NCBI GenBank assembly: GCA_963813025.1
Contig: CAWEXO010000011.1
Location: 64,001-128,000, forward strand
Direction of reading: 5' to 3'
From: an uncultured Verrucomicrobiae bacterium
GTDB lineage: Bacteria > Verrucomicrobiota > Verrucomicrobiia > Chthoniobacterales > JAFAMB01
Length of the DNA: 64,000 bases
The translations under genes were made by a program, and so were the position numbers. The notes beneath the pieces are model-generated. The model was not told the DNA's origin. It made no database searches and was given only the letters and a program-made list of their open reading frames with translations. Shown one piece after another: positions 1,861 to 20,632 of this stretch. Numbering within the stretch: position 1 is the first letter of the stretch; each line of letters starts with the position of its first letter.

Positions 1861-2353
1861 GTGAGCCGCTTTAACCCCGATTCTCACATGGGGCCGCTCG
1901 TATCGGAAGAACAACTGAACCGGGTACTCGGCTTCCTCGAAGCCGGGAAGGCCAATGGGGTCAAAACGGTGTTAGGCGGCAACCGAATCGGCGATCGAGG
2001 TTACTTCGTCGAACCGACGATTCTCACCGGAACGCGTCCGGGGATGAAAGTCGTCGATGAAGAGATCTTTGGGCCGGTCGTTTGTGCGACGCCCTTTGAC
2101 GAATTGGACCAGGTAGCAACGCAAATGAACCAGACAACTCACGGTCTGGCCGGCGCCATCTGGACAAAACGTTAGCAAGGCACACCGCATGGCTCGCGCC
2201 ATGAAGGCTGGTACCGTCTGGATTAATTGTTATAACGTCTTCGATGCCGCATTACCCTTTGGCGGTTACAAACAGTCCGGTTGGGGAAGAGAAATGGGCA
2301 GAGAAGCGCTCGAACTCTACACCGAAGTTAAATCTGTCTGCCTGAAGGTTTAG
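1861..2353 (+). pseudogene. Aldehyde dehydrogenase, C-terminal fragment, frameshifted near 2170
   Basis: EEIFGPV in the first frame, then [10 protein letters not shown] and [15 protein letters not shown] in another frame; N-terminal two thirds absent. Confidence 0.85.
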
Positions 2354-3017
2354 GGTTAACCGCTCTCTTACCGGTTGCAAACTGCCCATTCGACAGGGGC
2401 CATCACAGCTTCGCCTATAGCTTCGGCGAAGCTGTGTTGCGCGTGAAACCAAGCTGGGGACGAGACAACGTAAGAAATTAACAGTAGATCGCGACGTCAC
2501 AGCCCGGCGTAGTCGTAACCGCATTGCTTCTGCCGCCCCGGAGGGGCTGGGGAAAAATAGGCCAACGGGACCCCGGCAAACCAGGTAAGACCGAGCGCCG
2601 ACGTAAGTCGGATTCCCCCGCTTTTGTGACCCGAAAGCGGCAGCTAAATCCACCGTACGCGCCGTCCCGCCGAAATCGACTGAGCTGAAGTCCACGGCGA
2701 TCCCGCCCGTCGAGCTGATAATCGTGAACTGCATTCCGGTCAGCACACTCGCGTAAGCTAGGCTGGCTGACGCCCAGAAGGACTCTAACGCTTGTCAGAA
2801 TACGTCAGTGCCCCTCCACACACACAACCCATGAAAAAGCGTCATAGAGTGATTGGCGGAGCAGTCCGGCGCGACTGCCCCAGGAGACGATGAGACCGTC
2901 GGTGCTATGCAGGCTGCATTTAAAGCTTCCAATTCGTTACTGCAATTGATAGGATTCTTAACGGTTTTTTCTGCACGCATTCCGTGTAACGCAAAGGACG
3001 TACTAACCCTAAGGATC

Positions 3018-6000
3018 ATGATGAACACGCAAGTTCCCCTTCTGCGCATGTCCTCTACCGTTCTGGCCATGACCGTCTTAGCCACGGCCTTCTCGACGAC
3101 GAAAGCGCTCCCCCCGCTAATCGCGCCTCCCAATCTCGGACCTCACATCGATCAATCCTTCAGCTCGACGGATACTTCGACCGTTACCGCGAATTCCAAC
3201 GGAATAATCACGCTGGAGGGTGGAACGGTCACGCTTGATGCCATTAGCGGAGGCCAGATTGCTGCTTTGCTGGCAACGGGCGCTAACGCGCAGATCACCG
3301 CGACCGGCGTCACCATCGTAAACGATAATCTCCAGGGCACTTCCTTTACTTTTGGCGTCAATGCTACCAGCACACCTACCGGTGCCGCGGCCGTCAATTT
3401 GTTCGGGGGAAGTATCGACGCGACGGCGATCGGCAATGGCAGGGCCGTCGGTATCAATGCGGGCGTCGGTGGGACTGTTCGTGCCTCCAACCTCACGCTC
3501 GATTCAACCGGACCAAATGCCCACGCTATTGTATCGGCCGGTGGCACAATTGCTCTGGTAGACGGCGCGATTACCACGAACGGCTCGTTTGCGCTAGGCC
3601 TCCAGGCTAACGGCAACGCAGGACCCGCCACGATCACTGTCGACGGCACTACCATTAGAACACTCGGACCGACGAGCTCTGGCGCTCGGGCGGAAGGTAC
3701 GAATGCTGCAACGATTAGCCTGACAAATGCTACAATCGATACAGAGGGCGATAACGCGACCGGGCTGATTGCAATCGGTACTGGCAAAACGATCACGACT
3801 ACCAATACGAACATCGAAACTGTTGGTTCCTCAGCTTCTGGAGCTGCCGATTTTAATGGAGCCCACATCAATGAGACAGGCGGAACGATGACGACCTCTG
3901 GCAGCAATTCTATCGGTATCTCGTCCAACGGTCTGGGGAGCACCCTAACGGCCGTAGGCTTAACGGTGACAACGACTGGGACGGATAGCAGCGGCGCCTT
4001 AGCGCACGAAGGTGCACTGCTTACCCTGCAAAATAGCATAGTAACGACCACTGGAGACAACGCTGTAGGACTGAAGGTGATTCCTGCCCCAACGCAAGGC
4101 TCGACGTTGATGGCGACGAACAGCACGGTAAGCACTAATGGATTAAACGGGGAAGGAATCCTGGTAAGCGGCCGCGTGCCGCTGACCGTCACGGACGTAG
4201 TCAGTCTGAACAGCACCAACGTGACCACGCAGCAGGGGGATGGAATTGATTGGGACGGCCAGTCCAATACGAATGTCAGCCTGACAAACGGGACTACGGT
4301 GGTTCCCGGGAACGGAGTGTTATTGCGTGCGCTTGCCGGGACCGGAGGCGGCACGCCGCGAGTCTTGAATCTGACAGCGGATGGGACCGTGGCCCTGGAG
4401 GGGGATGTGTTGGTGGGGCCCGACAGCGTGGTGAACGTGAACCTCCTTAGTAATTCGGTGTTAACCGGGGCGATGCAGAACGCAAATAATGTCGCAATCG
4501 AGACGGGTAGCCGATGGGATATAACGGGCAGCTCAACAATCGGATCGTTGACCTTCAACGGCGGGACACTGCAATTCAACAACGCCGTCAACCTGGGAAT
4601 TACGCGCCTCATCACGCTGAATGCCTCAGGCGGAACAATCAACACGAATGGGAATGACGCGACACTCTCACAGGCAATCGTGGGGGTCGGCGGGCTGACC
4701 AAAACTGGCGCCGGCACGCTGACGCTCTCCGGAACGAATACCTATAGCGGCGGCACGAGCTTCAATGGCGGAATTCTTGCAGTAAACAGCGACTCCAATC
4801 TGGGAACCGGGCCGCTCAGTTTTAACGGCGGGACGCTCGAAGCACTCGGAGATATTACTTCAACCAAAGCGGTCATGCTCAATGCCGGGGACGGCACGTT
4901 TTTGGCCGATGCCGGCACGACCTCGAGGCTCAGCGGAGCGATCAGCGGTGTCGGCGGGTTCACCAAGGATGGCGCCGGCGAATTGATTCTGACCGGTGTG
5001 AACAGCTATAGCGGCAGTACGGTCGTGAAGGGCGGCACGCTGAACATCCAAGATGGCGGTAAGGACTCCGATAGCACCGGCGTCGTTGGCACCCTTGGCA
5101 CCGCTACGGAGGCCACTGGGACGGTGAACGTCATCGGTCCAGATTCGACCTGGACCAACTCTGGCCGCCTCCTTGTTGGTGCTGGTAATGGTTTCCATGG
5201 TTTCCTGAACATTCAGAACGGCGGCACGGTGTCAGATAATGCCGGATCTGTCGGCGCTACTCCCGGCTCAACTGGAACAGTGACGGTGGATGGCGCGGGC
5301 TCGATGTGGACAAGCGCTGGCGGGCTGTTTGTCGGCGATTTCGGCACCGGCACCTTGAACATTCACAATGGCGGCCACGTCACGAATTCCCGCGGGGAGA
5401 TCGGCGTTTTCGCCGGCTCGGCTGGTACAGTGGCGGTGGACGGGACGGACTCGACCTGGACAAACACCGGCAATCTCTATATTGGCGGCATCGTAGCCGG
5501 GCCGCGTGGAACCGGTCTTCTGGAGATCACCAACGGTGGTACGGTGAGCGCCGCAGCAACCACGATCTGGAACACCGGGACACTGGCAGTCGGCGCCAGT
5601 TTTAGGTTGATCACCTCGCTAACCGTCAACGGCGGCACAATCCGCACCCTGGCCGATACCACTTTTCCGAACAACGCGACGCTCGTTGGGGGTGGCGTTA
5701 TTCTCGATTCGAACGGTTTTGATTCGGCGTTTTCGGGCGCGTTTACAGGCTCTGGCGGTCTCACCAAGATAAGCCCCGGCCTGGTGATCTTGACCGGGGA
5801 CAACACCTTCTCCGGCGGCACCACAATCCTCGGCGGAACGCTAGAGCTTGGTAACGACGGAACGACCGGAAGCATCAGCGGGAATGTCACCAATAACGGA
5901 ACCCTGGAGTTTGACCGGCGAGATCCTGTGACCTTTAGCGGCGTGATCAGCGGCAGCGGTGATTTGGTGAAGATAGGCGCCGGCACATTGACTCTGACTG

Positions 6001-12165: not shown

Positions 12166-12310
12166 GAACAGCCTGGAGAATGAATGTTCATTACTTTTAT
12201 TGCAAATGTTTTATACATTGTATGTACGCGTTTTAACGTGACGTGGAGCAACATTCGGCAGACCTAGGGCCGGTAGGGCAGTATCTGAGCAGGTCTGGCA
12301 AGGGAAAAAG

Positions 12311-13585
12311 TTAAAGTTTTTCACCGATTGGTGAGTGGCGTTTTTTGAGGACTTGGAGGTAGCGCTCTTCGTCATAAGGGGTGCGGTCCTGCCAGAGCCG
12401 GAAGATGACGCGGATCCATTTAAAGGCCAAGGCGCGCACGGCAGTGTGGTGGGACTTACCGCGGGCCATTTGCTCTTGATAATAGAGCTTGGCCCATTGG
12501 GAATAAGGAATGGAATGAGCCGCGAATTCGTGGAAGCTCTGGCACAGGAATTTGGAGCGAAAGCGCCGCCGCTGGACGCTTTTGGTTTGCCCACTGCGCA
12601 CTTGGACCGGAGCGATTCCGCTTTTTTTCTGTACCTCCAGGGCTTCGGCAAAAGCCTGCCGATTGGAGCCAAAAGCCACCAACAAGCGCGGGGCTAATTG
12701 CGGGCCGGCTCCGGGCAGACTTTCAAAAATGTGCCGATCGGGATGTTTGGCAAACAGAGTGTGGATGGCTTTGTCAAAAGCCTTGATGGAATCTCGCAGC
12801 GGCAACAATTGACTGACCAAACACTTGCAACTCAGCACGGAGGGCTCCAGCAGAGAACGATCCTCGGTGACGGTTTGGGCCCGAGCGATCTTTTCCAGCC
12901 GCTCCTCAATCAAGCTTTGGCTCCGGCTGTGGTGTTGATAGAAAAAGGAGCGCAGGGTCTGGGACTTGGCTTTTTTTAAACTCTGCAGGGTCGGCCAGCG
13001 TTTCAAAAAATGTAGTGCCAGGGTCGTGTCCAGATCGTCGAGGACCTCCAGGGCCAGCGGATAGTAGACTTTGAGTAAGCTGGTGAGTTGGTTTTCGCAC
13101 ACCACGGAGGCCTCGACGGCTTTGCGTCGGTGCTGACCGAGCAAATCCAGTTCCCGCACTACCGGCTCCGGGGGTTGATAAAGCCGGAGCCGATCCCGAT
13201 GGTGATCAACGAGCTCTTCGATCAATTGGCTGTCGAGGGGGTCATCCTTGGCGCCACTGGTAAAGAAGACCTTGCGGTATTCGCTTAAACTCAAAGGATT
13301 GAGCGGATAGAGGTCGATCCAGTCTCCCTGGGTGCGAAGCATTTCAAAGAGTGCTCCCCGATTTTGTTCAAAACCAATGGCCACCCGCCCCTGCGGACCA
13401 GCCAAGCTTTTGAGCTCTTCGAGCCAGGTCCGAACCGAAACGGGATCGGCGCCCAGCTGGAATGTCCGGCATCCTCCCTCCGGACCAGAGCGTTGACAGA
13501 CAGCGTGTTCTTTATCAGCCCAATCGATTCCCACGCTGACCATATAATGGGGATCTGGGACCGGAAACGGATTTGATCGGTTCAT
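12311..13585 (-). CDS. IS110 DEDD recombinase/transposase
   Basis: VGIDW, IGFE, KDDPLD RuvC-like residues; C-terminal GIAPVQVRSG serine motif; AGGAG RBS. Confidence 0.95.
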   Translation of the reverse strand: MNRSNPFPVPDPHYMVSVGIDWADKEHAVCQRSGPEGGCRTFQLGADPVSVRTWLEELKSLAGPQGRVAIGFEQNRGALFEMLRTQGDWIDLYPLNPLSLSEYRKVFFTSGAKDDPLDSQLIEELVDHHRDRLRLYQPPEPVVRELDLLGQHRRKAVEASVVCENQLTSLLKVYYPLALEVLDDLDTTLALHFLKRWPTLQSLKKAKSQTLRSFFYQHHSRSQSLIEERLEKIARAQTVTEDRSLLEPSVLSCKCLVSQLLPLRDSIKAFDKAIHTLFAKHPDRHIFESLPGAGPQLAPRLLVAFGSNRQAFAEALEVQKKSGIAPVQVRSGQTKSVQRRRFRSKFLCQSFHEFAAHSIPYSQWAKLYYQEQMARGKSHHTAVRALAFKWIRVIFRLWQDRTPYDEERYLQVLKKRHSPIGEKL

Positions 13586-13618
13586 GCTTGCTCCTTTTTT
13601 CTGGTTTTACCCAGCGCG

Positions 13619-13840
13619 AAAAAAGCCGCTTGGCTTTGGCCGTCCGAAATCCGTATAGTTAAGTCGTCGAAGTGTGAAGTGCTCGACCTCAACTAGAGTA
13701 TTCGTTGTGACGAATCAAAGCGCGACCGGCTGGCTCGAAACTCTGCCCTAAAGATCTCGCGGACCCGAAAATCCTATTCGTAGCCAGCCGGCGCGTCCTT
13801 CTTCGCGTGGGCAGCGCGGGATTTTGCCCGACTGCCCTTG
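13619..13840 (-). ncRNA. Putative bridge RNA of IS110 copy 1 (ends approximate)
   Basis: 5' hairpin 13808-13837; loop 13726-13791 with AUUUUCG and UAGGGC matching the target; loop 13640-13713 with AUACU and CUAUAC matching the donor junction; terminator-like hairpin plus U-tract 13619-13637. Confidence 0.8.
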
Positions 13841-14408
13841 GCAATGAAAACCCTTTCTTTTTTCCAAAGCTTTCTTTTCTCCGGGCGGAGTTATTCACAA
13901 GCTGGAGCTCCGACCGGTAGGGCCTCCGACCACAGCTTGCTGAATAACTCCGGACTTGCTATACGGACTTGCTATACGAAAATTCATTCGAGCCTTGAAC
14001 TTGTTTGAGCCGGGGGTGCAAGTGGCAGCCTGGGTCGTTCCGTCACCGGATTCGCGCCCACGATAGCCCGGAAGCAAGGTACCAATATATGTCGCGAACC
14101 CGGTAAGGGCCGGCTTGAGCGACGCTGTGGCTCATTGGCCATTCCAAGGCGAGGTGACCCCATTTGCTGATTGGTGGTGACGACAAATTCACGGAGATAA
14201 TCTCGAAACCGCCGATCGCCGGATGCGAGCCTTAGCGAAAGCTTATTTGAGGCGTCCCAATTGTGGCGATTCCAATTTCAGATCCCCGAATTCGGTGCCG
14301 TACGACAAAGTTTCCAAGATTGGTCGACATCAATTCATCGGGCGAACGCTTCGCCAGATGATATAAAGTCCAAAACGCCGGGCAGCCTCGAACAGTGGAG
14401 TATCCGGC

Positions 14409-18598: not shown

Positions 18599-18845
18599 AG
18601 GGCTCTGTCGGACTCTGATCCTGTCCCGAAGGGGTCTGAGATGGTCTGTCGAGTCTTTTGGGGTGGAGTTATTCACTGCGCGAAGGGTAGGGCGATCCGC
18701 CTTGGCGGACGAGCGCCAGGCGCGAACTTGTTTGAGCCGTCCTGGGCGCGGCATATCCCAGGGCAGGGCTGGAACGAGTCTTCGCTGAAGGACTCAGATG
18801 AAGAGATTATGTCATAACGTGTCTCTGACCCTGTTGGGGTAGGGC
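18599..18845. repeat. Left part of a composite repeat interrupted by IS110 copy 2
   Basis: Outer arm AGGGCTCTGTCGGACTCTGA; degenerate REP 18686-18802; ends in the half-target GGTAGGGC. Confidence 0.7.
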
Positions 18846-18876
18846 AGTATCTGAGCAGGTCTGGCAAGGGAAAAAG

Positions 18877-20151
18877 TTAAAGTTTTTCACCGATTGGTGA
18901 GTGGCGTTTTTTGAGGACTTGGAGGTAGCGCTCTTCGTCATAAGGGGTGCGGTCCTGCCAGAGCCGGAAGATGACGCGGATCCATTTAAAGGCCAAGGCG
19001 CGCACGGCAGTGTGGTGGGACTTACCGCGGGCCATTTGCTCTTGATAATAGAGCTTGGCCCATTGGGAATAAGGAATGGAATGAGCCGCGAATTCGTGGA
19101 AGCTCTGGCACAGGAATTTGGAGCGAAAGCGCCGCCGCTGGACGCTTTTGGTTTGCCCACTGCGCACTTGGACCGGAGCGATTCCGCTTTTTTTCTGTAC
19201 CTCCAGGGCTTGGGCAAAAGCCTGCCGATTGGAGCCAAAAGCCACCAACAAGCGCGGGGCTAATTGCGGGCCGGCTCCGGGCAGACTTTCAAAAATGTGC
19301 CGATCGGGATGTTTGGCAAACAGAGTGTGGATGGCTTTGTCAAAAGCCTTGATGGAATCTCGCAGCGGCAACAATTGACTGACCAAACACTTGCAACTCA
19401 GCACGGAGGGCTCCAGCAGAGAACGATCCTCGGTGACGGTTTGGGCCCGAGCGATCTTTTCCAGCCGCTCCTCAATCAAGCTTTGGCTCCGGCTGTGGTG
19501 TTGATAGAAAAAGGAGCGCAGGGTCTGGGACTTGGCTTTTTTTAAACTCTGCAGGGTCGGCCAGCGTTTCAAAAAATGTAGTGCCAGGGTCGTGTCCAGA
19601 TCGTCGAGGACCTCCAGGGCCAGCGGATAGTAGACTTTGAGTAAGCTGGTGAGTTGGTTTTCGCACACCACGGAGGCCTCGACGGCTTTGCGTCGGTGCT
19701 GACCGAGCAAATCCAGTTCCCGCACTACCGGCTCCGGGGGTTGATAAAGCCGGAGCCGATCCCGATGGTGATCAACGAGCTCTTCGATCAATTGGCTGTC
19801 GAGGGGGTCATCCTTGGCGCCACTAGTAAAGAAGACCTTGCGGTATTCGCTTAAACTCAAAGGATTGAGCGGATAGAGGTCGATCCAGTCTCCCTGGGTG
19901 CGAAGCATTTCAAAGAGTGCTCCCCGATTTTGTTCAAAACCAATGGCCACCCGCCCCTGCGGACCAGCCAAGCTTTTGAGCTCTTCGAGCCAGGTCCGAA
20001 CCGAAACGGGATCGGCGCCCAGCTGGAATGTCCGGCATCCTCCCTCCGGACCAGAGCGTTGACAGACAGCGTGTTCTTTATCAGCCCAATCGATTCCCAC
20101 GCTGACCATATAATGGGGATCTGGGACCGGAAACGGATTTGATCGGTTCAT
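18877..20151 (-). CDS. IS110 DEDD recombinase/transposase
   Basis: 424 aa, one residue different from copy 1. Confidence 0.95.
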   Translation of the reverse strand: MNRSNPFPVPDPHYMVSVGIDWADKEHAVCQRSGPEGGCRTFQLGADPVSVRTWLEELKSLAGPQGRVAIGFEQNRGALFEMLRTQGDWIDLYPLNPLSLSEYRKVFFTSGAKDDPLDSQLIEELVDHHRDRLRLYQPPEPVVRELDLLGQHRRKAVEASVVCENQLTSLLKVYYPLALEVLDDLDTTLALHFLKRWPTLQSLKKAKSQTLRSFFYQHHSRSQSLIEERLEKIARAQTVTEDRSLLEPSVLSCKCLVSQLLPLRDSIKAFDKAIHTLFAKHPDRHIFESLPGAGPQLAPRLLVAFGSNRQAFAQALEVQKKSGIAPVQVRSGQTKSVQRRRFRSKFLCQSFHEFAAHSIPYSQWAKLYYQEQMARGKSHHTAVRALAFKWIRVIFRLWQDRTPYDEERYLQVLKKRHSPIGEKL

Positions 20152-20184
20152 GCTTGCTCCTTTTTTCTGGTTTTACCCAGCGCG

Positions 20185-20406
20185 AAAAAAGCCGCTTGGC
20201 TTTGGCCGTCCGAAATCCGTATAGTTAAGTCGTCGAAGTGTGAAGTGCTCGACCTCAACTAGAGTATTCGTTGTGACGAATCAAAGCGCGACCGGCTGGC
20301 TCGAAACTCTGCCCTAAAGATCTCGCGGACCCGAAAATCCTATTCGTAGCCAGCCGGCGCGTCCTTCTTCGCGTGGGCAGCGCGGGATTTTGCCCGACTG
20401 CCCTTG
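20185..20406 (-). ncRNA. Putative bridge RNA of IS110 copy 2 (ends approximate)
   Basis: Same sequence as 13619-13840. Confidence 0.8.
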
Positions 20407-20530
20407 GCAATGAAAACCCTTTCTTTTTTCCAAAGCTTTCTTTTCTCCGGGCGGAGTTATTCACAAGCTGGAGCTCCGACCGGTAGGGCCTCCGACCACA
20501 GCTTGCTGAATAACTCCGGACTTGCTATAC

Positions 20531-20632
20531 GAAAATTTAGCCGAGCTTCAGCGAGGACTCGTTTGAGCCGGACGCCGCGGTTGCCACCATCCAACCCGGC
20601 TCAAACAAGAAATCAAAGTCCGACACGTCCCT
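20531..20632. repeat. Right part of the REP/composite repeat interrupted by IS110 copy 2
   Basis: GAAAATTTAGCCGAGC..GTTTGAGCCGG / CCGGCTCAAAC and outer arm TCAAAGTCCGACACGTCCCT. Confidence 0.75.

Follow-up and report, generated by a model that had tools for sequence, protein, structure and literature searches.

The DNA analysed here, referred to as the window, is a stretch of 64,000 nt (C11:64001-128000) from an assembly of 16 contigs and 4.42 Mb (G000). It contains, on the minus strand, a complete insertion sequence (IS) of the IS110 family, composed of a left end of 391 nt (378 nt without a duplication at its tip), a recombinase gene and a right end of 32 nt. A second copy of the element, 99.9% identical and in the same orientation, lies 6.5 kb away within another copy of the host repeat. 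Target and donor positions are numbered after IS621 (PMC11208158), in which the left arm comprises positions 1-7, the core positions 8-9 and the right arm positions 10-14, the top strand of IS621 being cut after position 9. In this numbering the target reads GAATTTT-CG-CCCTA and the donor CAGATAC-TG-TATAG. The features listed below were all assigned to the minus strand, and coordinates given in descending order follow that strand.

12279..13977, minus strand: whole IS110-family element, this copy, delimited by comparison of 10 genomic copies and uninterrupted target sites.
13977..13985, minus strand: GAATTTT with the core CG, the left target half as found in the flank (IS621 positions 1-9), belonging to a repeat with 45 exact uninterrupted 14-mers.
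13952..13977, minus strand: left tip, two tandem 13-bp units with CG-TATAGC, from the copy comparison.
13885..13952, minus strand: long hairpin with imperfect pairing, located in the left-end 5' leader, predicted by folding, its stem shared with the relative L022.
13630..13796, minus strand: bridge RNA core, full-length covariance-model match (117.3 bits, E 4.2e-25).
13726..13791, minus strand: target-binding loop with a 10-bp outer stem and a CGAA/UUCG closing helix (helices 1-2, 16 of 17 pairs compensatory).
13766..13774, minus strand: left target guide GGAUUUUCG, the same as target positions 1-9 except for one G in place of A (G-T wobble with the bottom strand).
13753..13765, minus strand: inner hairpin of the target loop, GGUC/GAUC (helix 3, 4 of 4 pairs changed on both sides).
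13743..13750, minus strand: right target guide, UAGGGC (13750-13745) followed by AG.
13633..13721, minus strand: donor-binding loop with basal stem GCUUUG/CAAAGC and closing helix CGAA/UUCG (helices 4-6 and folding).
13688..13698, minus strand: CUC[U]AGUUGAG, the left donor guide as placed by homologs (family register), facing CTCAGATACTG at the right end.
13651..13658, minus strand: right donor guide, CUAUAC followed by GG; its complement CCGTATAG corresponds to right donor TATAG, the core G, target C8 and, by wobble, T7.
12311..13585, minus strand: recombinase gene, 424 aa, with DEDD RuvC-like and Tnp domains (open reading frame and Pfam).
12279..12310, minus strand: short right end, with the -35 box TTGCCA at 12301-12296, the left donor CTCAGATAC at 12289-12281 and core TG at 12280-12279.
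12272..12278, minus strand: CCCTACC, the right target half as found in the flank, from the copy comparison and empty sites.
About 18838-20531, minus strand: second copy of the element in the window, with its bridge RNA at 20196..20362.
20196..20362, minus strand: bridge RNA of the second copy, covariance-model match.

The assembly contains ten full copies of the element (97-100% identity, two of them nearly identical to each other), plus one truncated left end, and all ten interrupt a host repeat at one and the same base, with a common orientation. In the window copy the left junction reads AATTTTCG/TATAGC, with core CG at 13978-13977, and the right junction AGATACTG/CCCTACC, where the TG core occupies 12280-12279; G, the core base common to both, thus stands at 13977 and again at 12279. 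The left flank (...AATTTT, then CGTATAGC) is the same in 10/10 copies; on the right side, ...CAGATACTG is followed by CCCTACC in nine copies and by ACTA instead in one. The 4.4-Mb assembly has 45 exact uninterrupted copies of the 14-nt target, GAATTTTCGCCCTA, together with 122 that differ at one position and 117 that differ at two, where about 0.03 exact 14-mer matches would be expected from length alone (arithmetic estimate); the target forms part of a longer repeat of the form ...GGCTCAAACAAGTTCTCGC..GCTCGAATGAATTTTCGCCCTACCG.... Taken together, the flanks of the copies and the uninterrupted repeat sites show that the initial annotation had rebuilt both the target and the circle junction correctly and had rightly identified the target as a repeat. 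Its description of the element as intact also agrees with the copy comparison, since all ten copies have full open reading frames (424 codons) and identical RNA regions, with 0 variable columns in the 167-nt RNA region vs 28 in the 1275-nt CDS. The REP-like repeat carrying GAATTTTCGCCCTACC is very abundant genome-wide (for example at window positions 13977-14030 and 12240-12278), and often has two sub-units spaced by about 51 nt; only ten of its sites are occupied by the IS.

The insert in the window copy measures 1698 bp, or 1685 bp without the 13-bp duplication of its left tip, and the latter value is therefore taken as the usual length of the element. The duplication (CGTATAGCAAGTC twice), overlooked in the initial annotation, was found in 3/11 left ends, namely the window copy (13952-13977), a copy at C13:~92664 and the truncated copy at C1:~207976, most copies having one unit. 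It doubles the right-donor sequence together with the putative -10 box of the junction promoter, both of which reside in the TATAG of the left tip; slippage and secondary recombination at CG are two possible origins.

The deduced protein of 424 aa contains the domains DEDD_Tnp_IS110 (PF01548, E 1.8e-20, residues 18-176) and Transposase_20 (PF02371, E 1.3e-8). Comparison of a 17-homolog profile with transposases of solved structure yielded matches to IS621 (8.5e-12) and ISCro4 (PDB 9t56, 1.1e-12); the latter, the best solved-structure match by sequence, has the same domain order, with a similarity limited to the Tnp domain and weak N-terminal motifs. The predicted catalytic residues D21, E73, D115, D118 and S331 are invariant in the 17-sequence alignment, and the profile alignment places the GID, DxxD and ESG motifs of IS621 at D21, D115/D118 and S331, respectively. 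S331 aligns with the serine of the ESG motif, whose number in the structure chain is, by our own count, offset by 2 from S241. The N-terminal alignment to the IS621 structure is weak when taken alone (i-E 21), and the assignment of the DEDD domain accordingly depends mainly on Pfam. Both the domains and the aligned catalytic residues agree with the IS110 recombinase of 424 aa proposed initially. The nearest proteins are 72% identical in metagenomes and 69% identical in a Verrucomicrobiota MAG, values which suggest that this is probably an IS without an existing name.

A search with nhmmer revealed similarity between the left-end segment of the window copy and the upstream regions of 21 homologous genes, and RNAalifold, applied to 17 of those left ends, predicted two stem-loops in which 21 of the 34 pairs are compensatory. 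The covariance model constructed from the 17 left ends (155 positions, 38 pairs) was searched over the window and 79 homolog loci (protein identity 41-69%). It produced 78 matches with E<=0.01 in 72 of the 79 loci, nearly all of full length and located just upstream of the gene, and two further matches in the window (13630-13796 and 20196-20362). The seven loci with no match to the model were L042, L055, L077, L078, L047, L040 and L058; in the first four the upstream sequence is too short or the gene is partial, and in L047 the protein similarity covers the C-terminal part only. In the alignment fitted to the model, and for this reason favoured to pair, 95.0% of cells are paired and 34 of the 38 pairs show changes on both sides. 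These values were reached by none of 500 shuffles, and sliding the partners by 1-3 columns left 33-44% of cells paired. When folded alone, the 167 nt of the window copy adopt the same two domains (z -4.04, 0/200 shuffles as good); the minimum-energy structure of the whole left end mixes in long-range pairs, and the informative folds are the shorter one and that of the alignment. No Rfam family reached its gathering score in the window, and at E values up to 10 the region 13500-14050 gave chance matches to eukaryotic families only.

In the first domain, the outer stem CCGGCUGGCU (13791-13782) pairs with 13735-13726 and the closing helix CGAA/UUCG joins 13780-13777 with 13739-13736. The second domain is closed by the same motif (13704-13701 with 13648-13645) and has an inner hairpin at 13687-13666. 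Two loops sharing a CGAA/UUCG closure were what the initial annotation had described, and it had proposed folding and a covariance model of homologous elements as checks. Both recovered the structure, the former in the 17-sequence fold as well as in the 167 nt of the window, the latter in the 72 loci mentioned above, and the stems and closing helices are maintained by covariation. A comparison of 55 distinct elements showed a hypervariable internal loop in the first domain and a conserved one in the second, as has been described for relatives of IS621 (PMC11208160). Weak matches to the model on the opposite strand (E ~5e-4 to 1e-3; L085:640-778 and 3326-3438, L092:2226-2364) overlap the true RNA and probably reflect partial palindromy of the target-loop stem. 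Upstream of the RNA, the loop of the long leader hairpin contains GCCCTACCGGTCG, which the right-hand part of the host repeat carries in identical form; a role as decoy or captured target was considered but not retained, as in L022 the stem is conserved and the loop is not.

The two guides of the donor loop differ in how well they fit the ends of the element. The right donor guide is exact: CUAUAC (13658-13653) complements G-TATAG, and CGTATAG is present without mismatch at both left-tip units. In homologous elements the corresponding 7-mer was found exactly within 330 nt upstream in 30/47 cognate comparisons vs 7/564 non-cognate ones, and variants covary with their ends (e.g., CUGUAAG with CTTACAG).

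For the left donor guide the register was set by right-end homology (CTCAGAT.. in all). In that register CUC (13698) is the beginning of the guide, which pairs with the CTCAG... stretch at the right end, as seen in relatives such as L049 (CCUCAGAUG with CCTCAGATG) and L085 (CUCAGGG with CTCAGGG), with exact matches in L026 (CUCAGGUG), L099 (CUCAGGGA) and L050 (CUCAGAUA). Several apparent mismatches place a G or U against an A or C and would be wobble pairs when read against the bottom strand. Of 49 distinct elements, 23 have an exact left-donor 8-mer and 37 have one with at most one mismatch, compared with 22/882 and 250/882 for non-cognate 8-mers. The window element is one of the 12/49 with more than one mismatch in this ungapped test: pairing at seven of the first eight positions requires a bulged U, a mismatch and a G-T wobble. 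The same bulged U occurs in the closest relative, L021/L022 (69% protein identity), whose own right end, CTCAGTTAC, fits better. Complementarity in the second loop is therefore exact for the right guide and imperfect here for the left guide, the register of which is supported by the family. The left donor guide is the weakest of the guides and the least secure part of the assignment, the donor loop itself being real.

The initial annotation had instead assigned the left donor guide to AUACU (13701-13697), a string that lies inside CGAAUAC, which is largely conserved in the family whatever the right-end sequence. Its register could nevertheless be right for the sub-lineage of the window element, with AAUACU (13702-13697) pairing with GATACT at the right end. 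This would provide five contiguous matches adjoining the core, and the relative L021 has UACU against TACT. We consider it unlikely: besides the conservation of CGAAUAC, the two or three bases preceding CUCAG in relatives pair with those preceding CTCAG (CAC/CAC in L062, CC/CC in L049), which fixes the register 6 nt away from the one first proposed. Moreover, the A-to-T difference between the right ends of the window element and L021 is not mirrored in AAUAC, and the base opposite the core G would be C. The family register, starting at CUC, is retained in what follows.

At the right end, TTGCCA is located 17 nt before the tip, so that a circle would read TTGCCA-N17-TATAGC. A -35 box matched in at least 5/6 positions at this fixed distance of 17 nt was found in 30/41 distinct elements, and in most of the others it is shifted by one base. 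The -10 box of the window copy, TATAGC, matches 4/6 positions and is weaker than the TATAGT of most relatives. From these motifs, a promoter is predicted to be reconstituted where the right and left ends meet in the predicted circle, an arrangement known for IS621 (PMC11208160). The promoter and terminator scan detected no promoter-like or terminator-like site on the minus (RNA) strand inside the left end. A hairpin followed by a U-tract had initially been put forward as a terminator, an assignment that we abandon: its stem has 4 bp, was not called by the terminator scan and is not conserved in the 17-sequence alignment, and it overlaps and competes with the basal stem of loop 2.

The imperfect left donor guide, which fits the right end of L021 better than its own, the -10 box matching 4/6 positions and the existence of one truncated copy could together indicate a bridge RNA element that is now crippled in donor recognition or expression, its ten copies being relics. 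Such decay appears very unlikely, given that the open reading frames are intact in 10/10 copies, that the copies are 97-100% identical, with two nearly identical, and that the RNA region is invariant among them; IS621 itself tolerates some donor mismatches (PMC11208160), and the bulged U is common to L021/L022.

The guides of the target loop correspond to the flanks of the element. On the left, AUUUUCG (13772-13766), already recognized in the initial annotation, belongs to an extended guide that matches the left flank in 8/9 positions; on the right, UAGGGC (13750-13745), likewise recognized, complements G-CCCTA, and the right guide matches its flank in 7/9. The complement of 13743-13750, CTGCCCTA, equals the right junction, that is, donor C7, donor core TG and right target CCCTA. 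Scores as high as these were reached in 1/1478 non-cognate comparisons on the left (at least 8/9) and in 35/1402 on the right (at least 7/9).

The same correspondence was evaluated in the homologs, whose left ends were located by the 7-mer complementary to the right donor guide and whose right ends were located by the left donor 8-mer. Among 55 distinct target loops, 39 left and 38 right ends could be placed in this way, 16 and 17 being dropped, and because the patterns used are derived from loop 2, the flank tests are independent for loop 1 only. The left guide matched its own left flank with a mean of 6.26/9, compared with 4.22/9 for non-cognate flanks, and 7 or more of 9 positions agreed in 22/39 cognate vs 23/1478 non-cognate comparisons. 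For the right guide and right flank the means were 6.92/9 and 4.31/9, and 7 or more of 9 positions agreed in 26/38 cognate vs 35/1402 non-cognate comparisons. The covariation of guides with flanks, which the initial annotation had also proposed as a check, is thus present across about 40 distinct homologs, the same level of agreement being reached in about 2% of non-cognate comparisons. Some of the low cognate scores come from misplaced ends, as in L048. At L056:~2148-3840 and in L080 a homologous element interrupts a tRNA-Asp(GTC) gene, with the D arm on one side and the anticodon stem on the other, and its target-loop guides match the tRNA sequence. ARAGORN called no tRNA in the interrupted L056 and L080 loci. 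When L056 was cut in silico at the predicted ends, the tRNA-Asp(GTC) was restored, a check of the boundaries that is independent of loop 1; after in-silico removal of the element from L080, no tRNA was called by ARAGORN. As an alternative, the left-end structure might act solely in cis, as a leader or as DNA bound by protein, for instance controlling translation or transcription of the recombinase, with flank matches due to coincidence or mis-set ends. This would accord with an RNA that immediately precedes the gene, its end lying about 45 nt from the start codon, and with the long hairpin in the left end, but is extremely improbable, since the loop sequences track their own flanks in relatives inserted at quite different sites, the ends are fixed by ten copies, 45 empty sites and the restored tRNA of L056, and the paired regions covary while the loops vary freely.

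The left end of this active-looking IS110-group element therefore very probably encodes its bridge RNA, as judged from the sequence comparisons above. The protein family, the position of the RNA in a long left end, its structure and the covariation of its guides all agree with the target-loop and donor-loop layout that had been recognized at the outset. By analogy with IS621, the element would be excised as a circle, in which the joined right and left ends would create the promoter (TTGCCA, 17 nt, TATAGC) transcribing the left end. The RNA is expected to fold into two stem-loops, each with an internal loop, the first pairing with the host repeat and the second with the joined ends of the element. 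The 424-aa DEDD/serine recombinase would then exchange strands adjoining the shared G. Insertion occurs in a single orientation, with ...TTTTCG on one side and CCCTACC... on the other. Each right-side guide is followed on its 3' side by two bases that would pair with positions 7-8 of the other partner and thereby accommodate the C of the target and the T of the donor. The circle, its transcription, the RNA-protein complex and the strand-exchange chemistry are all modelled on IS621, as is the suggestion that the system is potentially programmable.

The core differs between target and donor. The left junction has CG in 10/10 copies, and the right junction TG in nine and TA in one; empty target sites have CG, so that only the second core base (G) is shared with the donor TG, and the dinucleotide identical in target and donor, CT in IS621, has no counterpart here. 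In all ten independent insertions the target C was kept at the left junction and the donor T at the first core position on the right. The AG located 3' of the right target guide complement donor positions 8 and 7 (T, C) and not those of the target, and the GG located 3' of the right donor guide pair with target C8 and, by wobble, T7. These additional bases resemble the handshake guides described for IS621 (PMC11208158) and may be regarded as handshake-like, here reaching the first core position, which fits a core with only its second base shared. In IS621 the first core base is less conserved, and GT, AT and TT cores work (PMC11208158); CG vs TG can therefore be seen as a relaxed version of the same arrangement and not as an exclusion from it.

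According to our own reading of the bottom-strand numbering in PMC11208158, the two strands of IS621 are cut four bases apart. With such a stagger, positions 6-7 are already mismatched in natural IS621 recombination and the inherited junctions are derived from the top strand; the differing position 8 extends this mismatch and is a modest variation, not a new mechanism. Strand exchange on either side of the C/T base followed by random segregation of the mismatch should give mixed outcomes. The uniform junctions would thus be evidence either that only the top-strand product is inherited or that the crossover spans a single base, and top-strand-only inheritance fits the single-strand copy-and-paste transfer that a 2026 preprint has proposed for IS621 (10.64898/2026.08.31.748434). 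It is possible, if rather doubtful, that this sub-family needs only one base in common between target and donor at the crossover, with the handshake bases covering the first core position. In L064, L068, L071, L073 and L085, the ends of which were placed by pattern, the left-junction bases are AA, GA or CA vs TG on the right, and non-identical cores may be common in the family.

The element is a well-preserved further example of a known bridge RNA system, described in 2024, and not a system of a new kind. Bridge RNAs have been predicted in 85.7% of ISfinder IS110 elements, and IS621 targets REP repeats (PMC11208160). As in IS621 (PMC11208160, PMC11208158), the recombinase combines DEDD RuvC-like and Tnp-serine domains, the RNA lies in a long left end opposite a short right end with the target loop first and the donor loop second, and insertion into a host repeat occurs in one orientation; handshake-like extra bases and a promoter split across the circle junction are also common to both, here as read from the DNA. 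Unlike IS621, the protein has 424 aa vs 326-328 aa and is distantly similar, with only the C-terminal domain aligning significantly; the left end, of about 380-390 nt, includes a leader of about 180 nt with a long hairpin; the core is not CT, with one base (G) common to target CG and donor TG; and the left guides begin at a point 2-3 nt more distant from the core. Among the IS110-group features that could be tested, all were found except a core dinucleotide common to target and donor and a left donor guide of clean fit.

ISPpu9 (PMC12288879) and ISPpu10 (10.64898/2026.03.19.712850) of Pseudomonas putida are also multi-copy, REP-targeting IS110 elements with an intergenic repeat as target, but their host repeat and guides are different, and for ISPpu9 an sRNA downstream of the transposase gene is described (PMC12288879). 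Elements of the IS1111 group share the recombinase family and RNA-guided site choice (PMC11208160; under the name 'seekRNA' in PMC13604230). In that group the RNA lies downstream of the gene in the right end, and there are long sub-terminal inverted repeats (PMC11208160), unlike the present element, in which the RNA is upstream of the gene and the right end has 32 nt, an arrangement that places it outside IS1111. One 20-nt target-loop string and two donor-loop strings had 0 occurrences in seven supplementary files of PMC11208160, a weak test given that alignment columns are removed there.

With this locus, an environmental bacterium supplies a further bridge RNA system that can be read cleanly, with ten intact copies and hundreds of natural target sites. 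Its recombinase is distant from that of IS621, and such orthologs are raw material for engineering bridge recombinases, while the one-base shared core and the extended handshake pairing could help to define the real sequence requirements of the crossover. For genome annotation, the element explains a set of insertions in the abundant repeat of its host and opens no new question. The truncated copy is a left-end-only remnant (C1:207772-208038, 95.9% identity), broken inside the target-loop hairpin at GCGAGA; this hexamer is present also in the host repeat, which suggests a deletion by short homology.
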